The notes: generated by a model not told the origin, from the sequence alone. A DNA stretch of 31,800 nt from Candidatus Omnitrophota bacterium (GCA_018061225.1 JAGOUK010000001.1:1-31800), one strand, 5' to 3'. Counted from the first letter of the stretch, positions 15,002 through 31,800 are shown. Numbers and translations: made by a program.

Positions 15002-15241
15002 TTAGATCACCGTCCGCCCGTCAGCGGGTTCCACCTTCACGCCGCGGGATTCCAAAAATTTAATCCCCGCGGCAAGGTCGGCTTGAGCGCCCTCGAGCTC
15101 GAGCGTCATTTCGCCGACGGTCTCAGTGACACGTGCGCGTCGGATATTGGGCATGATATTAAACTGCTTGGCCATCGTAAATACGACCGGCTCTTGCACT
15201 TTGTCGGAAGGAAACGTCAGTGTCACACGTTGCGTTGCCAT
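15002..15241 (-). CDS. Stand-alone NIL-domain protein
   Basis: VTLTFPSDKVQEPVVFTMAKQFNIMPNIRRARV...GEMTLELEG...GVKVE fits the NIL (MetN C-terminal, ACT-like) pattern; GGAGG 7 nt before ATG 15241. Confidence 0.85.
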   Translation of the reverse strand: MATQRVTLTFPSDKVQEPVVFTMAKQFNIMPNIRRARVTETVGEMTLELEGAQADLAAGIKFLESRGVKVEPADGRTVI

Positions 15242-15260
15242 GTTCATTCCTCCGTTAAAG

Positions 15261-15542
15261 TTACCGGGCTCCGCCCGCGATTGCGGGAATAATAGACACT
15301 TCGTCGCCGTCCTTGAGCGCCGTCTCGGCGCCGCTCAGGAAGCGGATATCTTCTTCATTCACATAAACGTTCACAAAGCGCCGCAGCTTGCCGTCCGCGT
15401 CGCAAAGTCTGTCCTTGATCCCCGGAAACTTCGATTCCAGGTCCTTCAAGATGTCGTTGACGTTCGCGCCGTCGGCGGCGACCTCCGCCTGATTGGCGGT
15501 TAATTTTTGAAGCGGGGTCGGGATACGGACTTTGACTGCCAT
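15261..15542 (-). CDS. MoaD/ThiS/CysO-family ubiquitin-like sulfur carrier with masked C-terminus (GG-AR)
   Basis: [13 protein letters not shown]...[16 protein letters not shown]...[14 protein letters not shown], followed by AR and stop. Confidence 0.93.
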
Positions 15543-15544
15543 GA

Positions 15545-16798
15545 TTACCTCTGAGCGTTTGCTTTGGGTTGATGTTTTTCGTAAGCTTCGACGAACGAAT
15601 CAAAATTAGGTTTCACCAGCCAGGGCTTTTCGAGATGGTCCGTGATCGCTTCCTGGGTCTTGAGCCCGTTTCCGGTGATACAGATCACGATCGGTTCATT
15701 TTTCGGGATCACGCCGTTTTCGATCAGCTTCTTGGCGCAGGCCAGCGTAACGCCGCCCGCCGTCTCGGTGAAGATACCTTCCGTGCTGGCAAGCAGCTTG
15801 ATCGCGTCGACGATCTCCTGATCCGTCGCGTGCTCAGCCGCGCCGCCCGAGGACTTCACCGCGTCAAAGGCGTACACACCGTCGGCGGGATTGCCGATCG
15901 CAAGCGACTTGGCGATGGTGTTGGGCTTCACGGGCTTGATGATATCAACATTGCTCTTGATCGCCGTCGCGATCGGACCGCAGCCTTCGGCTTGCGCGCA
16001 ATAGATCCTGGAATCCACCTTGTCGATAATGCCGAGCTTGGCCAATTCGTGGAAAGCCTTCCAAATCTTCGTGAGCAGCGAGCCTGACGCGGCCGGGACG
16101 ACAACATGCTTCGGCGTCTTCCACCCGAGCTGCTCGACGATCTCATAGCCCATGGTCTTCGAACCTTCGGCATAGTAAGGCCGGATGTTGATATTCACGA
16201 AGGCCCACTTGTATTTGTTGGCCACTTCGGAGCAAAGGCGGTTCACTTCGTCGTAATTGCCCTCGACGGCGACAAGATTAGGGTTGAACGCGAGCGCGCC
16301 AACCACTTTGCCGATCTCGAGATTTGAGGGAATAAAAATATAGCGCTTAAGACCCGCGAACGCCGCGTTGGCCGCGACCGATCCGGCGAGATTGCCGGTG
16401 GACGCGCAGGCCACGGTGTCAAAGCCCAGTTCTTTGGCGCGCGTGAGAGCTACTGAAACGACACGGTCCTTAAAGGAGAGGGTTGGATGACAAACGGAGT
16501 CGTCCTTGATGTACAACTCGCTGACGCCCAGCGCCTTGGCCAGGTTCGAGCAGCGAAACAGCGGTGTGAAGCCCGCATGAAAACCCACGGTCGGCTCGCC
16601 GTCGATGGGCAGCAGCTCCCGATACCGCCACAGCGATTCGGGGCGGCTTTGGATTTTTTCGCGCGAAATATCCTTCTTGATGCGGTCGTAGTCGTAATCG
16701 ACTTCGAGCGATCCAAAGCAATATTCGCAGACATAAATCGCCTCAGCCGGATACAGCCGATGACACTCGCGACACTTAAGACCTTTGATATAACTCAT
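15545..16798 (-). CDS. Threonine-synthase-like fold-type-II PLP enzyme (sulfur-carrier-associated; true activity uncertain)
   Basis: N-terminal CxxC...Cxx[12 protein letters not shown] lysine, CASTGN, ITGNGLK; start at ATG 16798. Confidence 0.88.
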
Positions 16799-16809: not shown

Positions 16810-16838
16810 ACTATAACAGACGTGTAAAAGGGTGTCAG
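16810..16838 (-). promoter_or_regulatory. Internal sigma70-type promoter upstream of the ThrC-like gene
   Basis: CTGACA (16838-16833, overlapping the cysK stop), 17 nt, TATAGT (16815-16810) with a TG extension. Confidence 0.55.
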
Positions 16839-17761
16839 CCCTCAAAGTATTGAACCATGCTCAAATAACGCTCCCCCGAATCCGGGAACAGGACGGCGAC
16901 CGTTTTGCCGGGCCCCAGGATTTGCGCGACTTTGAGCGCGCCCCAGCAGGCCGCTCCGCAGGAGATCCCCGCGAAGATACCTTCCTGCTTGCACAGCTGT
17001 GACGCTGTCTGATAAGCGTCCTCATCGCTGCACCTAAAAATTTCATCCACCACCGACTGATTGAGCGTTTGCGGCACAAAGCCCGCGCCGATGCCCTGTA
17101 TCATATGAGCTCCCGGCTTGCCGCCGGACAAAACCGCAGATGTCGCGGGCTCGACGCCATAGACCTTCACCGCCGGATTGTGCTTCTTCAGCACTTCTCC
17201 GATGCCGCTGATGGTCCCGCCGGTACCGATGCCGGCCACGAACGCGTCGATGCGGCCGTCCAGGTCAGCCAAAATTTCTTTGCCGGTCGTCTTCCGATGC
17301 GCGGCCGGGTTATCCGGATTGGTGAATTGGCTCGGCATGAAGGCGCCTTTCCCTTCCCGCACCAGCTGTCTGGCTTTTTCCACCGCGCCGGCCATGCCGG
17401 CATCCACGGGGGTGAGCACCACTTCCGCGCCAAAAGACTTAAGGATCTGCAAACGTTCGAAGCTCATGTTATCCGGCATCACCAACGTCACGTGATACCC
17501 GCGCGCCGCGCCGACCATCGCCAACCCGATCCCGGTGTTGCCGCTCGTGGCTTCCACGATGCGCGACCCCGCCTGCACCAGCCCGTTCTTCTCCGCCTGA
17601 TCGATCATGTTGAGCGCGATGCGGTCCTTGACGCTGCCGCCGGGGTTGAAGACTTCCAACTTCGCAAAAATATCCGCCGACCCCTTTTGCACAATTCGGT
17701 TCAGCTTCACCATCGGCGTGTTGCCGATAAGCTCGGTGATGGACTGCGCGGGCCGCGTCAT
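16835..17761 (-). CDS. cysK: Cysteine synthase A (O-acetylserine sulfhydrylase)
   Basis: IGNTPMV, NPGGSVKDR, EATSGNTGIGLA, GIGTGGTISG, HMIQGIGAGFVP, DSGERYLS. Confidence 0.96.
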   Translation of the reverse strand: MTRPAQSITELIGNTPMVKLNRIVQKGSADIFAKLEVFNPGGSVKDRIALNMIDQAEKNGLVQAGSRIVEATSGNTGIGLAMVGAARGYHVTLVMPDNMSFERLQILKSFGAEVVLTPVDAGMAGAVEKARQLVREGKGAFMPSQFTNPDNPAAHRKTTGKEILADLDGRIDAFVAGIGTGGTISGIGEVLKKHNPAVKVYGVEPATSAVLSGGKPGAHMIQGIGAGFVPQTLNQSVVDEIFRCSDEDAYQTASQLCKQEGIFAGISCGAACWGALKVAQILGPGKTVAVLFPDSGERYLSMVQYFEG

Positions 17762-18156
17762 AGGATCACGATCTCTTCCGCGGTCACGGCATCCCCTTGA
17801 ATCCTAAAGGACTTGAGGTCCGGATGATTCATATCGGCCAGCGACACGATGAGATAACTCACGTCCGGATAAAACGCCATCTGCCGGTCCGTCTGCGATG
17901 GCTCGGCCGCCGAAGCAACATGCGAGTGAAAAATTCCCAACAACTCCAATCCGTCACCCGAGATCCGCTTAAAGGCCTTAAGCTGCTGTTTAGGATCCAT
18001 GGTGTAGGTCACCGTGGAATGGTCCATGTTCTCGATCGGCAGATAATATTTGGCTTCGCCGTCCTTGCCGGCCAAAAAACCGCAGGCCTCCTGCGGATAC
18101 ACGCCCTTGGCATGATCCACCATCTCGGCATGAATGGCCTTGGCGATCTTCAGCAC
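17758..18156 (-). CDS. JAB/Mov34 (M67) metallopeptidase, Mec+/HcyD-like
   Basis: EACG plus JAMM motif HSH-x7-S-xx-D (IFHSHVASAAEPSQTD). Confidence 0.92.
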   Translation of the reverse strand: MLKIAKAIHAEMVDHAKGVYPQEACGFLAGKDGEAKYYLPIENMDHSTVTYTMDPKQQLKAFKRISGDGLELLGIFHSHVASAAEPSQTDRQMAFYPDVSYLIVSLADMNHPDLKSFRIQGDAVTAEEIVIL

Positions 18157-18162
18157 GACGGC

Positions 18163-18888
18163 CTACCTCGCCCCCGGGCGGTTGTGCAGGCCGCATTCTT
18201 TGTGCTCGGGATTCTCCCACCACCAGCGGCCGGCGCGCTCATCCTCGCCTTCCTTAACCGCGCGCGTGCAGGGATCACAGCCAACGGAACGGTAGCCTTG
18301 ATCAAAAAGAACGCTATACGGCACCTTGTTCTTGCGGATGTAGTCCCAGACCCTGGCTTCGTCCCAGTCGGCGAGCGGATTCACCTTGAGGATATTCCCG
18401 TGGGCCTCATCAATCTCAATTTTCTTGATCTCCGCCCGCGTCACTGACTGCGCGCGGCGCTGTCCCGTGATCCAGGCGTCGAGTCCGCCCAGCGCGCGCT
18501 TGAGCGGCTCCACTTTGCGGATGCGGCAGCATTCTTGCCGGTTCTCGACCGATTCTTTGAATGAAAAAAATCCTTTGGCCCGCGTCAGCTTCTCAACGGC
18601 GACAGGGTCCGGAAAAAATACTTCGATCACGCAGTTGTACTTAAACTTCACCGCGTCCATGACCGCGTAAGTTGCCTCCGGCAGCCGTCCCGTATCCAGC
18701 GTGACGATCCTCGCCTTGGGGTCAAATTTGAGCGCCATGTCGATCAACACCATGTCCTCCGGGCCAAACGAGGAGGAGATGGCGATTCGGCTTCCGTATT
18801 TTTCGAGCATCCAGGCGATGACCGACTCCGGGCCGTGCAATTCAAACTCAGAGTTCAGTTTTTCCGCTTCCGCTTTGGCTCTAAGCAT
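18163..18888 (-). CDS. cysH: Thioredoxin-dependent APS reductase (CysH family, Fe-S type)
   Basis: SSSFGPED, LDTG, ECCRIRKVEPL, WITGQRR, SVGCDPCT, C-terminal ECGLH; start moved to ATG 18888. Confidence 0.94.
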   Translation of the reverse strand: MLRAKAEAEKLNSEFELHGPESVIAWMLEKYGSRIAISSSFGPEDMVLIDMALKFDPKARIVTLDTGRLPEATYAVMDAVKFKYNCVIEVFFPDPVAVEKLTRAKGFFSFKESVENRQECCRIRKVEPLKRALGGLDAWITGQRRAQSVTRAEIKKIEIDEAHGNILKVNPLADWDEARVWDYIRKNKVPYSVLFDQGYRSVGCDPCTRAVKEGEDERAGRWWWENPEHKECGLHNRPGAR

Positions 18889-20149
18889 GGAGGATGATCC
18901 CCCCGCCCGAAACAAGATTCCGGTCCACCAGCACGAAGCGGCCGGTTTCCTGAATCTCGTGGAACGGATCATAAACAATGTCTTTTTTGAACTCGAGCTC
19001 AAGTTCGGCGACCTCGTTCTTGGCAACTTCATGATGGTCTTTGGAGACTTCATCCAGCGTCGAAGAATTGATCACGCGGACAACGTTCTTCACCTTGCAC
19101 TCCAATTCCTGAGTCGTGAGTTTGATGACGTAGGACTTGCCCTTGGCCAAATGCTCTTCACCCATCCAAAAGATATTGGCGCGGAAGTGTTTGCCGACCA
19201 GCGGCTTGGCCGACGCGTGCACGGCGATCTCGCCGCGCTCGACAAAGAGCTGATCTTCAACGGTGATTCCGATGGATTCGCCCGCTTCGGCTTCCGGCGG
19301 TTCCGGCGCGTTCCAGCGCTCGATCGCGCTGACCACCGCCGTTTTCTTCGACGGCAAAAAGAGGATCTCATCACCCTTCTTCAGTCGGCCGGACTCGATG
19401 CGACCGGAGAAGTAGCGTTTTTCGGAATCAAACCGATACACGTCCTGCAGCGGGAATCTCAGCGCGCGCGTCGAGGCCGTGCGGTGCGAATCCACCGAAT
19501 CCAGGATCTCGACGAGCGTCGACCCTTTGTACCAGGGCATCTGCGACGTGCGCATCACGACATTGTCGCCCACGTACGCGGACACCGGGATGAAGGCCTT
19601 CGGCGTGACCTTGAGCGTCTTCAGATAATTCGTGTAGTCCGTGACGAGTTTGTTGAACGTCTCTTCACTGTAGCCCACGAGGTCCATCTTATTCACGATC
19701 ACAATGATGTTCTTGATTCCGAGAAGTGACAAGATCGTCGCGTGACGCTTGGACTGTTCGCGCAGCCCCTCTTTGGCGTCGATGAGCAGGAGCGCCGCGT
19801 CGGCGCTGGACGCGCCCGAAATCATGTTCTTGAGGAATTCTTTGTGGCCTGGCGCGTCGATGACGCGGTAGGTGCGCTTCTTTGTTTTAAAAAGCACCTG
19901 AGACACGTCGATCGTGATGCCCTGATCCTGCTCTTCCTCGAGCGCGTCGAGTAAGAAGGCATATTCAAACTTCACGCCCTTATCGACGCAGATCTGCTTC
20001 ACGTATTCCAGTTTTTGCGGCAGGATGGAGTCGGTCTCGTGCAGCAGGCGGCCCACGAGCGTGGACTTGCCGTGATCGACATGTCCGACAAAAACGATGC
20101 GCAGTTCGCCGGATTGATTGTTTTGTGGGTTGCCGTTCACGTCAGACAT
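18881..20149 (-). CDS. cysN: Sulfate adenylyltransferase subunit 1 (GTPase), no APS-kinase domain
   Basis: GHVDHGKSTL, EQDQGITID, DAPGHKEFLKNM, VNKMD, TGRFVLVD; ends at 422 aa. Confidence 0.94.
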   Translation of the reverse strand: MSDVNGNPQNNQSGELRIVFVGHVDHGKSTLVGRLLHETDSILPQKLEYVKQICVDKGVKFEYAFLLDALEEEQDQGITIDVSQVLFKTKKRTYRVIDAPGHKEFLKNMISGASSADAALLLIDAKEGLREQSKRHATILSLLGIKNIIVIVNKMDLVGYSEETFNKLVTDYTNYLKTLKVTPKAFIPVSAYVGDNVVMRTSQMPWYKGSTLVEILDSVDSHRTASTRALRFPLQDVYRFDSEKRYFSGRIESGRLKKGDEILFLPSKKTAVVSAIERWNAPEPPEAEAGESIGITVEDQLFVERGEIAVHASAKPLVGKHFRANIFWMGEEHLAKGKSYVIKLTTQELECKVKNVVRVINSSTLDEVSKDHHEVAKNEVAELELEFKKDIVYDPFHEIQETGRFVLVDRNLVSGGGIILHA

Positions 20150-20952
20150 TACATGTATCCTTTCGCGCGAAGCTTCTGCATCGCGTATCGCTGAGAGTGG
20201 TCCTGATCGCGGCCGACGCGCTCAGATATTTTGGTGTTCTTCAATTCTTCAATGACTTTGTCCACGGTGTCAGCGTCCGAATCCACGGGCTTCGTGATCG
20301 GCCGGCACCCGAGCGTGCGGTAGCGCTTGCCGTTCTTGGCAAAGTAGAGATCGACGAGCGGAATGTTCTCGCGTTTCACGTAATTCCACACGTCCACCTC
20401 GGTCCACTCGAGCAGCGGATGAATGCGCACATGCGTGCCGGGATCGTAGTCCGACTGAAACTGATTCCACAGCTCCGGCGGCTGGTCCTTGTAATTCCAC
20501 TCAAAGTCGATGTTGCGCGGAGAAAAATATTTTTCCTTCGCGCGCGTGCCGTCTTCGTCGCGGCGGATGCCGACGAACAGGCCGTCCCATTTTTCTTTTT
20601 CGATCATCTGCTGAAGAGCGACGGTTTTCATCTCATGGCAGACGGTGACCGGGTCATTGTTGTCATAGTTGACCCCGCGCGCCTTGGCGGCTTCATTGAC
20701 GCCGACGATGAGCTTCAGGCCCCATTCTTTGGCGTAGTGCTCACGGTAAGCGTACATTTCCGGAAACTTAAAGGTCGTGTCGATGTGAACAACCGGAAAA
20801 GGCACGCGGCCGAAGAAAGCCTTGCGCGCCAGCCAGACGTTGACGCAGGAGTCCTTGCCCATGGACCACAGCATGGCCGGCTTCTTGAACTTTTTATAGG
20901 CCTCACGGATGATAAAAATGGATTGATTTTCGAGCGCGCTCAGGTGGTCCAC
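20149..20952 (-). CDS. cysD: Sulfate adenylyltransferase subunit 2
   Basis: LENQSIFIIREA, WSMGKDS, HIDT, RRDEDGTRAKE, RIHPLLEWTE, YRTLGC; GTG start with AAGGAG SD. Confidence 0.96.
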   Translation of the reverse strand: MDHLSALENQSIFIIREAYKKFKKPAMLWSMGKDSCVNVWLARKAFFGRVPFPVVHIDTTFKFPEMYAYREHYAKEWGLKLIVGVNEAAKARGVNYDNNDPVTVCHEMKTVALQQMIEKEKWDGLFVGIRRDEDGTRAKEKYFSPRNIDFEWNYKDQPPELWNQFQSDYDPGTHVRIHPLLEWTEVDVWNYVKRENIPLVDLYFAKNGKRYRTLGCRPITKPVDSDADTVDKVIEELKNTKISERVGRDQDHSQRYAMQKLRAKGYM

Positions 20953-22807: not shown

Positions 22808-22995
22808 ATTGGTCCCACAGCGCCGTGTGTCGTGTCCTGGCTGAATCCCTGTTTTTACAGGGCGGGTGCCTACTACCGACATTTCTTATCCGACAGATCG
22901 CCGGATCTATCCACGCCGGGGTTCGACACCCACATGAGTTATATCGGATTCGCGCGTATGGACACAACGAAGCTCGAACGCCGCAGGAAACTCTT
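22808..22995 (-). ncRNA. ssrS: 6S RNA
   Basis: ~185-nt rod: closing stem UCCUGCGGCG/CGCUGUGGGA, GUUGUGUCC/GGACACGAC, GAAUCC/GGAUUC, central bubble with 3' hairpin CCCUG-UAAAAA-CAGGG, GUGGGUGUC/GGCACCCGC, apical GAUAGAUC/GAUCUGUC. A TATAAT lies ~7 nt upstream. The ends are approximate. Confidence 0.82.
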
Positions 22996-29535: not shown

Positions 29536-29612
29536 TGGTGGGCAATACAGGATTCGAACCTGTGACCTTTTCCATGTCAAGGAAACGCTCTAACCAACTG
29601 AGCTAATTGCCC
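29536..29612 (-). tRNA. tRNA-Val(GAC)
   Basis: GGGCAAT/ATTGCCC acceptor stem, anticodon arm TTTCC-TTGACAT-GGAAA, TTCGAAT T-loop, encoded CCA. Confidence 0.97.
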
Positions 29613-29642
29613 AAAAAAAAGAATCCGAACTCAACGAATACA

Positions 29643-29726
29643 TGCCGAGAGCCGGACTTGAACCGGCATGGACCGAAGCCCGACAGATTTTAAGTCTGTT
29701 GTGTCTGCCAATTCCACCATCCCGGC
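29643..29726 (-). tRNA. tRNA-Leu(TAA)
   Basis: GCCGGGA acceptor stem, TGGCAGAC D-loop, ACAGA-CTTAAAA-TCTGT, long variable arm with TTCG loop; CCA not encoded. Confidence 0.96.
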
Positions 29727-29730
29727 AATC

Positions 29731-29804
29731 TGGAGGCGACGGCCGGAATTGAACCGGCGTAAACGGTTTTGCAGACCGCTGCCTAACCACTTGGCTACGT
29801 CGCC
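29731..29804 (-). tRNA. tRNA-Cys(GCA)
   Basis: GGCGACG/CGTCGCC acceptor stem, anticodon loop CTGCAAA, discriminator T, encoded CCA. Confidence 0.97.
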
Positions 29805-29931: not shown

Positions 29932-31800
29932 ATGGTCAAACCCAACGAACATCCTATTTATTCGCTTCTCGCCAAACGCGTTGTTTTCCTCGATGGCGCC
30001 ATGGGCACGATGATACAGCGTCATAAGCTGACCGAAGCCGACTATCGGGGCGAACGGTTCAAAGACTACGCGCAGGACCTTAAAGGCAATAACGACCTCC
30101 TATCCCTCACCCGACCGGATGTGATCCGTCTCATCCACCGCCAATATCTCGAAGCCGGCAGCGACATCATCGAGACCAACACCTTCAGCGCCAACGCCAT
30201 CAGCATGGCTGACTATAAGATGGAAGGGCTGGTCTATGAGCTCAACGTCGCCTCGGCCAAACTGGCGCGCGAAGCCATAGATGAGGTCCGCAAGCAAGAT
30301 CCGTCCCGCGTCTGCTTCGTGGCTGGCGCCATCGGGCCCACCAACCGCACCGCGTCCATGTCCCAGAACGTCAATGACCCCGGCAACCGTGCCGTGACCT
30401 TCACGCAGCTAGTCGAGATTTACACCGAACAGATTCGCGGCCTCGTTGACGGCGGGGCCGACCTTCTGATGGTCGAAACAATCTTCGACACCCTGAATGC
30501 CAAGGCCGCGCTTTATGCGATTGATCTTTATGCCGAGCAAACCGGCAAGAAACTGCCCATCATTATTTCGGGCACCATCACCGACGCGTCGGGGCGTACG
30601 CTCTCAGGTCAAACGGTCGAGGCCTTCTGGACTTCGCTCAAGCACGCCAAGCCTCTCGCGATCGGGCTCAATTGCGCGCTCGGAGCGGCCGAGATGCGTC
30701 CTTACATCGCGGAACTCTCGCGGCTGGCCGATTGCTACATCAGCTGTTATCCCAACGCGGGTCTTCCCAACGAATTTGCCGAATACGACCAGGCGCCTGA
30801 TCAGATGGCGCCTTTGGTGAAGGACTTTGTTCAAAGCGGTTACATCAATATTCTCGGCGGCTGCTGCGGCACAACCCCCGACCACATCGCGGCAATGGTG
30901 AAAGCCGCGCGCGACATGGCGCCGCGTAAAGTCCCGGTGATCGCGCCGCGCTCGTCTTACAGCGGACTCGAAGTGCTCAATCTTGATCCGGGCGCCCGCT
31001 TCCTCAATGTCGGCGAACGCACCAACGTCACCGGCTCGCCCAAATTTGCCAAGCTCATCAAAGAAGAAAAATACGACGAGGCGCTCACCGTCGCGCGCCA
31101 GCAGGTCGAAGCCGGCGCCCAGATGATCGACATCAACATGGACGAAGCGATGCTCGATTCCAAAGCCGCGATGGTGAAATTCCTGAACCTTATCGCGTCC
31201 GAGCCCGACATCGCGCGCGTGCCCGTCATGATCGACTCCTCCAAGTGGGATGTCATCGAAGCGGGTCTCCAGTGCTGCCAAGGCAAATGCGTCGTGAACT
31301 CTATCAGTCTCAAGGAGGGTGAAGCGCCGTTCAAGGAACAAGCGCGCAAGCTCAAGCGCTACGGCGCGGCCGCGGTCGTGATGGCATTCGATGAGCAGGG
31401 CCAGGCCGATACGCTCGAGCGCCGCAAGACCATTTGCCAACGCGCGTACAAAATCCTCACCGAAGAGATTGGTCTGCCTGGCGAGGACATCATCTTCGAT
31501 CCCAATATTTTCGCGATCGCGACCGGTATCGAGGAGCACAGCAATTACGCGGTCGACTTCATCGAAGCCTGCAAATACATCAAGGCCGAACTCCCACACG
31601 CCAAGATCTCCGGCGGTGTGAGCAATGTTTCGTTTTCATTCCGTGGTAATAATCCCGTGCGCGAGGCGATGCACTCGGTTTTTCTCTACTACGCGGTGAA
31701 GGCGGGGCTGGACATGGGCAACGTCAACGCGGGCATGATCGAAGTCTATGACGAGATCCCCAAGGACTTGCTCGCCAAAGTCGAGGACGTCGTGCTCAAC
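29932..31800 (+). CDS. metH: Cobalamin-dependent methionine synthase, N-terminal part; runs off the window end
   Basis: Not in the ORF track (no stop in window). Hand translation: [45 protein letters not shown] (Zn site), [28 protein letters not shown]. Confidence 0.97.

Follow-up and report, generated by a model that had tools for sequence, protein, structure and literature searches.

A threonine synthase-like gene of an Omnitrophota bacterium probably encodes a carrier-dependent homocysteine synthase of the MetM type

A stretch of DNA of 31,800 nucleotides from Candidatus Omnitrophota bacterium (GCA_018061225.1, JAGOUK010000001.1:1-31800; hereafter the window) carries on its minus strand a gene whose product resembles threonine synthase (ThrC) but departs from it in the loop that binds the substrate phosphate. 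We asked whether this gene encodes a threonine synthase or an enzyme of another specificity. A preliminary description of the locus had favored a changed reaction specificity or a surface opened for the docking of a carrier. Our analysis suggests, with good confidence, that the gene encodes a homocysteine synthase of the MetM type and not ThrC. We observed membership of a distinct clade, a fitting gene context, all four parts of the pathway, a separate housekeeping ThrC and a complementary distribution across the phylum; the homocysteine chemistry is taken over, by analogy, from the published Streptomyces system. The window enzyme is a phylum-level addition to the MetM family described in 2024 and no new kind of enzyme.

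The minus-strand reading frame at 15545-16798 starts with an ATG at 16798, stops at 15545 and encodes 417 residues. The gene and the parts of its product that matter here are as follows.

15545..16798, minus strand: metM-like gene for an enzyme of the ThrC fold dependent on pyridoxal 5'-phosphate (PLP), 417 residues, predicted to be a homocysteine synthase dependent on MetO thiocarboxylate
16718..16774, minus strand: CxxC-x11-CxxC zinc-ribbon-like N-terminal motif (C9, C12, C24, C27), read from the translation
16463..16477, minus strand: SFKDR with the PLP-binding lysine K110, invariant in the MetM and ThrC clades
16154..16204, minus strand: remodelled loop and start of the helix, a 17-residue peptide (residues 199-215) with N202, the inserted residue, R206 and Y209

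The protein contained a single PALP domain (Pfam, 227 bits). It scored above the cut-off of the broad NCBIfam thrC model TIGR00260 (284 bits, cut-off 167) and reached the cut-off of none of the ThrC equivalog PRK models; it came closest with NF006050 (294 versus 303 bits), and the PRK08197 equivalog was among the models whose cut-off it missed. The broad model evidently covers MetM too. An AlphaFold2 model of the protein, built on a 26-row alignment, had a predicted local distance difference test score of 92.9 and a predicted template modelling (TM) score of 0.92. Its top Foldseek matches were threonine synthases, with TM-scores normalised to the target of up to 0.86, and no MetM structure was found among the Protein Data Bank structures searched with Foldseek. 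Other enzymes of related type were rejected: the protein scored 70.9 bits against the cysteate synthase model TIGR03844 (cut-off 324.9), and its scores with the models for threonine dehydratase and diaminopropionate ammonia-lyase were far under the cut-offs. The PLP lysine and the N-terminal CxxC/CxxC, which had been described as intact, were both located by translation. In a 26-sequence alignment of the clade, C9 and C24 were invariant and C12 and C27 at least 90% conserved; the CxxC...CxxC motif is not specific to MetM, being present in other ThrC-like clades, some of them with the canonical loop.

The divergent loop peptide given in the preliminary description proved to be an exact translation of 16154-16204 on the minus strand. 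We compared it by HMMER alignment with five distinct solved threonine synthases, those of A. aeolicus (2zsj), B. subtilis (6cgq), T. thermophilus (1uim), M. tuberculosis (2d1f) and A. thaliana (1e5x). All five carry N-S-x-N-[PS]-x-R-x-EGQKT, in accord with the canonical motif quoted in the preliminary description, and none carries the loop of the window protein, the finding that had been named as the one to speak against the description. The alignments also agreed that Ser and Arg are displaced and that one residue is inserted. In the numbering of the T. thermophilus enzyme, counted along the alignment, in which K61 lands as expected on the SFKDR lysine, N154 is kept as N202, S155 is replaced by Ile/Asn plus the inserted residue, and N157 becomes R206. 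R160 becomes Y209, with the new invariant Arg three residues earlier, T88, which follows S-T-G-N, becomes L137, and the Gln of EGQKT becomes Ser. We take N154, S155, R160 and probably T88 to be the contacts of the substrate phosphate in ThrC, as Omi et al. 2003 and Murakawa et al. 2011 reportedly found. N202, R206, Y209, E211 and G212 were invariant in 26 members of the clade at a mean column identity of only 47%, suggesting that their conservation exceeds chance. In the AlphaFold2 model residues 206-211 (RPYYAE) were helical, the helix starting at R206, which would put Y209 about one turn away from R206 and on much the same side of the helix. We infer from this model that the phosphate-binding Arg has been shifted by one helical turn and has not vanished. 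Because the published MetM substrate is still O-phospho-L-homoserine, and because R206 and N202 are invariant, the aligned sequences suggest that the phosphate site has most likely been re-registered instead of lost; on the same grounds, the loss of phosphate binding that the preliminary description implied is improbable.

We then asked whether the loop belongs to a clade or to this protein alone. In a full HMMER scan against 1.84 billion cluster representatives, there were 1846 matches below 1e-30 to the window protein. Most full-length representatives, including the top scorers (about 38-59% identical), read N-x-[NGT]-[LIVF]-R-[PSAGT]-[YFW]-Y-x-EG-[SA]-KT, and the more distant zinc-ribbon ThrC-like groups had either N-P-[YF]-x-x-EGKKT or the canonical loop. 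The core pattern R[PSA][YFW]YxEG[SA]KT was found in at least 600 stretches of species-representative genomes, and all 600 of 600 were confirmed relatives. A maximum-likelihood tree of 85 rows was computed with LG+C20+F+G4 and supports from the Shimodaira-Hasegawa-like approximate likelihood ratio test; fragments shorter than 370 residues and most near-duplicates were left out. The tree, an analysis of a kind that the preliminary description had proposed, was split with 99% support into 44 rows on one side and, on the other, 41 rows of canonical ThrC and other ThrC-like groups. On the 44-row side 36 rows fit the loop pattern and the other eight are close variants. Thus, the loop marks a well-supported clade and is its signature, not a private change of the window protein. 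The window protein itself lay within an Omnitrophota group (99%), which joined, at 85% support, an actinobacterial group that contains Streptomyces (100%). The core pattern and N-S-x-N-P-x-R-x-EGQKT told the two clades apart in every sequence examined.

Named members of the loop clade came from Omnitrophota, Actinomycetota, Acidobacteriota (including Granulicella) and one euryarchaeal metagenome-assembled genome, and all of them are annotated "threonine synthase" in databases, a name that thousands of entries of this clade carry. Beside it, a separate, well-supported clade of zinc-ribbon ThrC-like proteins showed a third loop type, N-R-N-x-x-x-N-P-Y-x-x-EGKKT, without the canonical Arg (representatives P0174, P0203, P0223, P0226, P0229, P0238, P0240, P0248, P0252 and P0270).

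The actinobacterial relatives connect the clade to an enzyme of known function. In S. albulus the threonine-synthase homologue MetM converts O-phospho-L-homoserine to homocysteine using the thiocarboxylate of MetO, with the help of Mec and MoeZ (Hasebe et al. 2024, Appl Environ Microbiol 90:e0124724, as related in PMC13759103 and its preprint). The pathway is listed in GapMind 2026 (PMC13759103), and according to the preprint the enzyme "is often misannotated" as threonine synthase. The S. albulus metM gene has an S-adenosylmethionine (SAM) riboswitch upstream (PMC12172450). Our actinobacterial sample consisted of the best 80 loci of the genome scan (of at least 600), 11 of them from Streptomyces and 2 from Kitasatospora. 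A SAM riboswitch (RF00162, 63-82 bits) ended within about 100 nucleotides upstream of the loop-bearing gene in 22 of the 22 loci scanned for it, which came from Streptomycetaceae, Micromonosporaceae, Geodermatophilaceae, Streptosporangiaceae, Thermomonosporaceae, Nocardioidaceae and Kribbellaceae. A homologue of the window's carrier gene lay directly downstream in every Streptomyces and Kitasatospora locus of the sample; in these the loop reads GFVNVNLRPYY[AG]EGSKT. The order riboswitch-metM-carrier in the Streptomyces loci is the layout published for S. albulus metM-metO (PMC12172450, PMC13759103). No riboswitch was found in the window.

The identities point the same way. The window enzyme is 51% identical to its S. 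griseoincarnatus orthologue versus 33% to the ThrC of its own genome, values that match those in the literature for a MetM homologue (51.6% to MetM; PMC12172450) and for a true ThrC (33% to MetM; bioRxiv 10.64898/2026.09.15.751699). The window carrier is 58% identical to the Streptomyces carrier encoded downstream of the riboswitch-controlled gene. In Micromonosporaceae, Geodermatophilaceae and relatives (L009-L041) there was no carrier gene within 6 kb of the MetM-type gene, and the upstream SAM riboswitch was kept in all five such loci that were scanned (L009, L010, L013, L030, L033); these families must either encode the carrier at another locus or share one.

In the window, the metM-like gene is part of a tightly spaced minus-strand string that runs from cysD, cysN and an adenosine 5'-phosphosulfate/3'-phosphoadenosine 5'-phosphosulfate (APS/PAPS) reductase gene through a JAB protease and a CysK-type gene to the MetM-like gene, a ThiS-family carrier and a NIL domain.

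18163..20952, minus strand: cysD, cysN and APS/PAPS reductase, sulfate activation and reduction, head of the string
17758..18156, minus strand: JAB/JAMM protease, Mec-like (Prok-JAB, 82.6 bits; desampylase model, 89.8 bits, below cut-off)
16835..17761, minus strand: CysK/CysM-type cysteine synthase (TIGR01139, 433 bits, above cut-off)
15261..15542, minus strand: metO-like sulfur carrier of the ThiS/MoaD family, 93 residues (ThiS, 69.9 bits), C-terminus GG-AR
15002..15247, minus strand: stand-alone NIL-domain protein, 81 residues (NIL, 64.7 bits), after a 13-nucleotide gap behind the carrier gene
29932..31800, plus strand: 5' part of metH, with homocysteine S-methyltransferase and pterin-binding domains, a consumer of the predicted product

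The carrier gene starts 2 nucleotides past the metM-like gene, and a carrier gene followed the MetM-type gene in 30 of the 30 loci that we fetched from the phylum; a NIL domain was found within the short flank of most of them, and a CysK-type gene preceded in about half. This linkage bears on the possibility that the enzyme is an O-phosphohomoserine sulfhydrylase that works on free sulfide, the carrier serving the CysK/CysM-like enzyme or being dispensable. The genome does encode a sulfite reductase, a CysK-type gene stands in the same string, and serine acetyltransferase (cysE) was not found in the genome, which is 81% complete, which might mean that it is the cysteine enzyme that depends on the carrier, like CysM of M. 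tuberculosis. However, the carrier gene is a near neighbor even in those phylum loci that have no CysK gene in the flanks of about 1.5 kb fetched. Moreover, the Streptomyces pair stands alone behind its SAM riboswitch, and the published system needs MetO (PMC13759103). We consider a sulfide-dependent enzyme improbable.

The genome of which the window is part is a metagenome-assembled genome of 1.33 Mb. It contains a second ThrC homologue, directly after hom (homoserine dehydrogenase) on contig C173, with the canonical loop LVNSVNPDRIEGQKT. Against the A. aeolicus enzyme (2zsj) this protein scored 421 bits versus 205 bits for the window protein. It is the housekeeping enzyme, and the role of a ThrC in hom/thrB context, which the window gene does not have, is filled by it. 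A MoeZ-type protein of 387 residues with ThiF and rhodanese domains is encoded on contig C126 beside a NifS-type gene.

The presence of a canonical ThrC also bears on a claim made for the 'ThrC' of Microcystis aeruginosa, which is 51.6% identical to MetM, namely that it is a bifunctional threonine synthase/threonine deaminase. That MetM homologue is encoded beside a metO-like gene, and it showed deaminase activity in vitro and weak threonine formation at 30 mM substrate (PMC12172450). However, no thiocarboxylated carrier was supplied in that work (PMC12172450), and a gamma-eliminating PLP enzyme that is given no nucleophile would be expected to yield alpha-ketobutyrate as the product of an uncoupled side reaction. 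In the window's genome ThrC is already there, and the gene tracks the biology of methionine and not that of threonine. A deaminase of this kind therefore seems to us very improbable.

We searched the same genome for the classical enzymes of homocysteine synthesis. MetX, MetA/HTS, MetB/Y, DUF39 and any Cys_Met_Meta_PP (PF01053) enzyme were not found in the 81% of it that is assembled. Across the phylum, of which 151 genomes were sampled, the window protein had bimodal matches: ThrC-level matches (34-40% identity) occurred in nearly all genomes and MetM-type matches (63-78% identity) in 52 of 151, and PF01053 enzymes of the MetB/Y type were present in 58 of 151. When the two were cross-tabulated, 50 genomes had MetM only, 56 had PF01053 only, 2 had both and 43 had neither. 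In the two overlapping genomes the MetM match is only partial, covering 297 residues in one and 177 in the other. In one family 20 genomes with a MetM-type gene and 26 with a PF01053 enzyme showed zero overlap, and the complementary pattern recurred within and between families. Such a distribution would be expected if the MetM-type enzyme replaced the classical homocysteine enzymes. The 43 genomes that lack both either import methionine or use a further route.

The distribution also speaks to another possible gamma-replacement, in which phosphohomoserine would react with cysteine, to give cystathionine as in a plant-like route, or with some other thiol. The chemistry that follows gamma-elimination is permissive, and a cysteine-synthase gene lies immediately upstream. 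But cystathionine needs a beta-lyase of PF01053, which was found neither here nor in 50 of the 52 genomes with a MetM-type gene, and the tight linkage to the carrier would be unexplained. Such an enzyme is hardly to be expected.

The same evidence can be set against the view that the genome has two threonine synthase isozymes, this one with a phosphate loop of variant type. The protein's margin over the TIGR00260 cut-off (284 versus 167 bits) and the name 'threonine synthase', which every database gives to the family, are in favor of it. However, the protein falls under all ThrC equivalog PRK cut-offs, it lacks the canonical Arg and Ser, its loop is absent from the five solved enzymes, and it belongs to a separate clade marked by control by a SAM riboswitch, linkage to a carrier and complementarity with MetB/Y-type enzymes. 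We regard an isozyme as extremely improbable. The change in reaction specificity proposed in the preliminary description is, in turn, well supported by the riboswitch- and carrier-linked clade, the separate canonical ThrC and the complementarity with MetB/MetY-type enzymes. Each of the four alternatives explains less than a MetM-type homocysteine synthase does, and none covers carrier linkage, SAM-riboswitch control and PF01053 complementarity together.

Several points weigh against the MetM assignment. The function of the window protein and of the other Omnitrophota members is predicted from genes, and the clade is anchored by congeneric Streptomyces orthologues with the published layout and not by S. 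albulus MetM itself. Completeness of 81% makes the absence of genes weak evidence on its own, and related genomes are not independent, so that the complementarity statistic is overstated and its Fisher p-value is given no weight here. The role proposed for the loop stands on alignment and on structural literature on ThrC. Finally, a clear homoserine kinase was not found in the genome, in which there were only a weak match to GHMP kinases and a sub-cut-off HomK-like gene. The latter, which scored 207 bits with TIGR02535 (cut-off 446) and belongs to the cofactor-independent phosphoglycerate mutase/HomK type, lies on contig C139 and adjoins the apparent 3' end of the housekeeping thrC, which seems to continue there from C173. 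It is a candidate for a non-classical homoserine kinase that would provide ThrC as well as MetM with O-phosphohomoserine.

How could an enzyme of the ThrC fold make homocysteine? ThrC carries out a PLP-dependent gamma-elimination of phosphate, and the released phosphate is retained and helps water to add at C-beta. A MetM-type enzyme would likewise bind O-phospho-L-homoserine and eliminate the gamma-phosphate, and would then accept the C-terminal Gly-Gly thiocarboxylate of MetO at C-gamma, where ThrC adds water at C-beta. To become competent, the carrier would need the JAB protease, which would strip the residues after GG, and a MoeZ-type ThiF-rhodanese enzyme whose gene lies outside the window. 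Homocysteine would be freed and then methylated by MetH. The protease is predicted to trim the C-terminus of the carrier, to split the amino acid off its adduct with the carrier, or both. The substrate phosphate would still be docked by N202 and R206, both invariant, and the loss of the equivalents of R160, S155 and T88 would mean that the released phosphate is no longer retained.

We looked for further residues that separate the clades, defined as those conserved to at least 90% among MetM sequences and to at least 85% among ThrC sequences but different between the two sets. In window numbering, with the ThrC residue second, these were V114/M, L137/T, Y182/F, R206/N, Y209/R, G239/A, S298-L299/A-I, G307/W and G348-G349/S-A. 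The Trp-to-Gly and Ser-Ala-to-Gly-Gly switches thus go along with the loop change, and they might give room to the flexible Gly-Gly tail of the carrier. That the pocket surface was opened for docking of the carrier, the second suggestion of the preliminary description, is plausible from these positions. These few clade-specific switches around a shared substrate amount to a defined set of mutations that bear on how enzymes of the ThrC fold come to use either water at C-beta or a sulfur nucleophile at C-gamma.

The carrier itself is joined to the NIL domain in relatives. In 6 of 6 same-order relatives the two form one open reading frame of about 172 residues, in which the carrier ends in ...AIAGG and NIL comes after an Ala or Ser and a short basic linker (Pfam: ThiS 5-91, NIL 97-164). 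ThiS and NIL occurred together in at least 120 database clusters, named MoaD-family, molybdopterin-synthase carrier or hypothetical. The window keeps them apart, with a stop codon (GG-AR-stop) and then the 13-nucleotide spacer, which contains a GGAGG ribosome-binding site. No NIL homologue was found in the best 80 actinobacterial loci. To work, a carrier fused to NIL past its GG must undergo cleavage behind the GG, presumably a task of the neighboring JAB protease. NIL is the methionine-binding domain of MetN; therefore, it could be either a leaving group or, possibly, a methionine-responsive cap.

More tentatively, we propose that the re-registered loop and three further changes, Thr to Leu, Trp to Gly and Ser-Ala to Gly-Gly, may make up a compact switch from ThrC to a carrier-dependent homocysteine synthase, one that would end the retention of phosphate and admit the carrier tail, and that the carrier may be made as a NIL-capped pro-protein whose maturation by JAB could be tuned by methionine. 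This combined proposal is possible, and in our view rather doubtful.

The resemblances to known systems can be stated precisely. With S. albulus MetM/MetO the window shares an enzyme of the ThrC fold with an N-x-N-x-R-P-Y-Y loop (read in congeneric orthologues), a ThiS-family carrier directly after it, a JAB protease and a ThiF-rhodanese activating enzyme in the genome, and a separate true ThrC. Unlike the S. albulus pair, that of the window is found in Omnitrophota, lacks a SAM riboswitch and is embedded in a cysD-cysN-cysH-mec-cysK string, and its carrier has a two-residue cap (GG-AR) and then a NIL domain, which is fused in close relatives. Canonical ThrC (EC 4.2.3.1) has the fold, SFKDR, the S-T-G-N loop, the Asn equivalent to N154, E-G-x-K-T and the presumed substrate O-phosphohomoserine in common with the window protein. 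The latter is only 33-36% identical to it, has an extra N-terminal zinc ribbon and differs in genomic context and distribution.

CysM of M. tuberculosis is a cysteine synthase that depends on a carrier thiocarboxylate and uses O-phosphoserine, and the CysM-CysO-Mec system resembles that of the window in its fold-type II PLP enzyme, its phosphorylated amino acid, its ThiS-like thiocarboxylate and the JAB protease that acts on the carrier (PMC12910592). CysM differs in belonging to the cysteine-synthase branch and not to that of ThrC, and in catalysing a beta-replacement, not a gamma-replacement. By analogy with CysM, the CysK-type synthase of the window may use O-phosphoserine and the same carrier, and one carrier might feed the synthesis of both cysteine and homocysteine. 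The HcyS-HcyD-HcyF-MetY system of Wolinella succinogenes (Krishnamoorthy and Begley 2011, as cited in PMC5764234) likewise makes homocysteine from a protein thiocarboxylate, with a capped carrier C-terminus and JAB trimming. Its PLP enzyme, an O-acetylhomoserine sulfhydrylase of fold type I (PF01053), is of a type not found in the window's genome. Cysteate synthase of Methanosarcinales (TIGR03844), with a ThrC fold and an N-terminal extension, is a precedent for ThrC paralogues that took on a new function with changed specificity.

The loop can also be used as a rule for annotation. In small-genome Omnitrophota without any classical homocysteine route it predicts methionine prototrophy.

Elsewhere in the window, a 6S RNA (Rfam) was detected at 22808-22992 on the minus strand, between pheT and a rarA/mgsA-like gene, with 53.1 bits against a gathering score of 46.4, and three tRNA genes lie within 29539-29804 on the minus strand.

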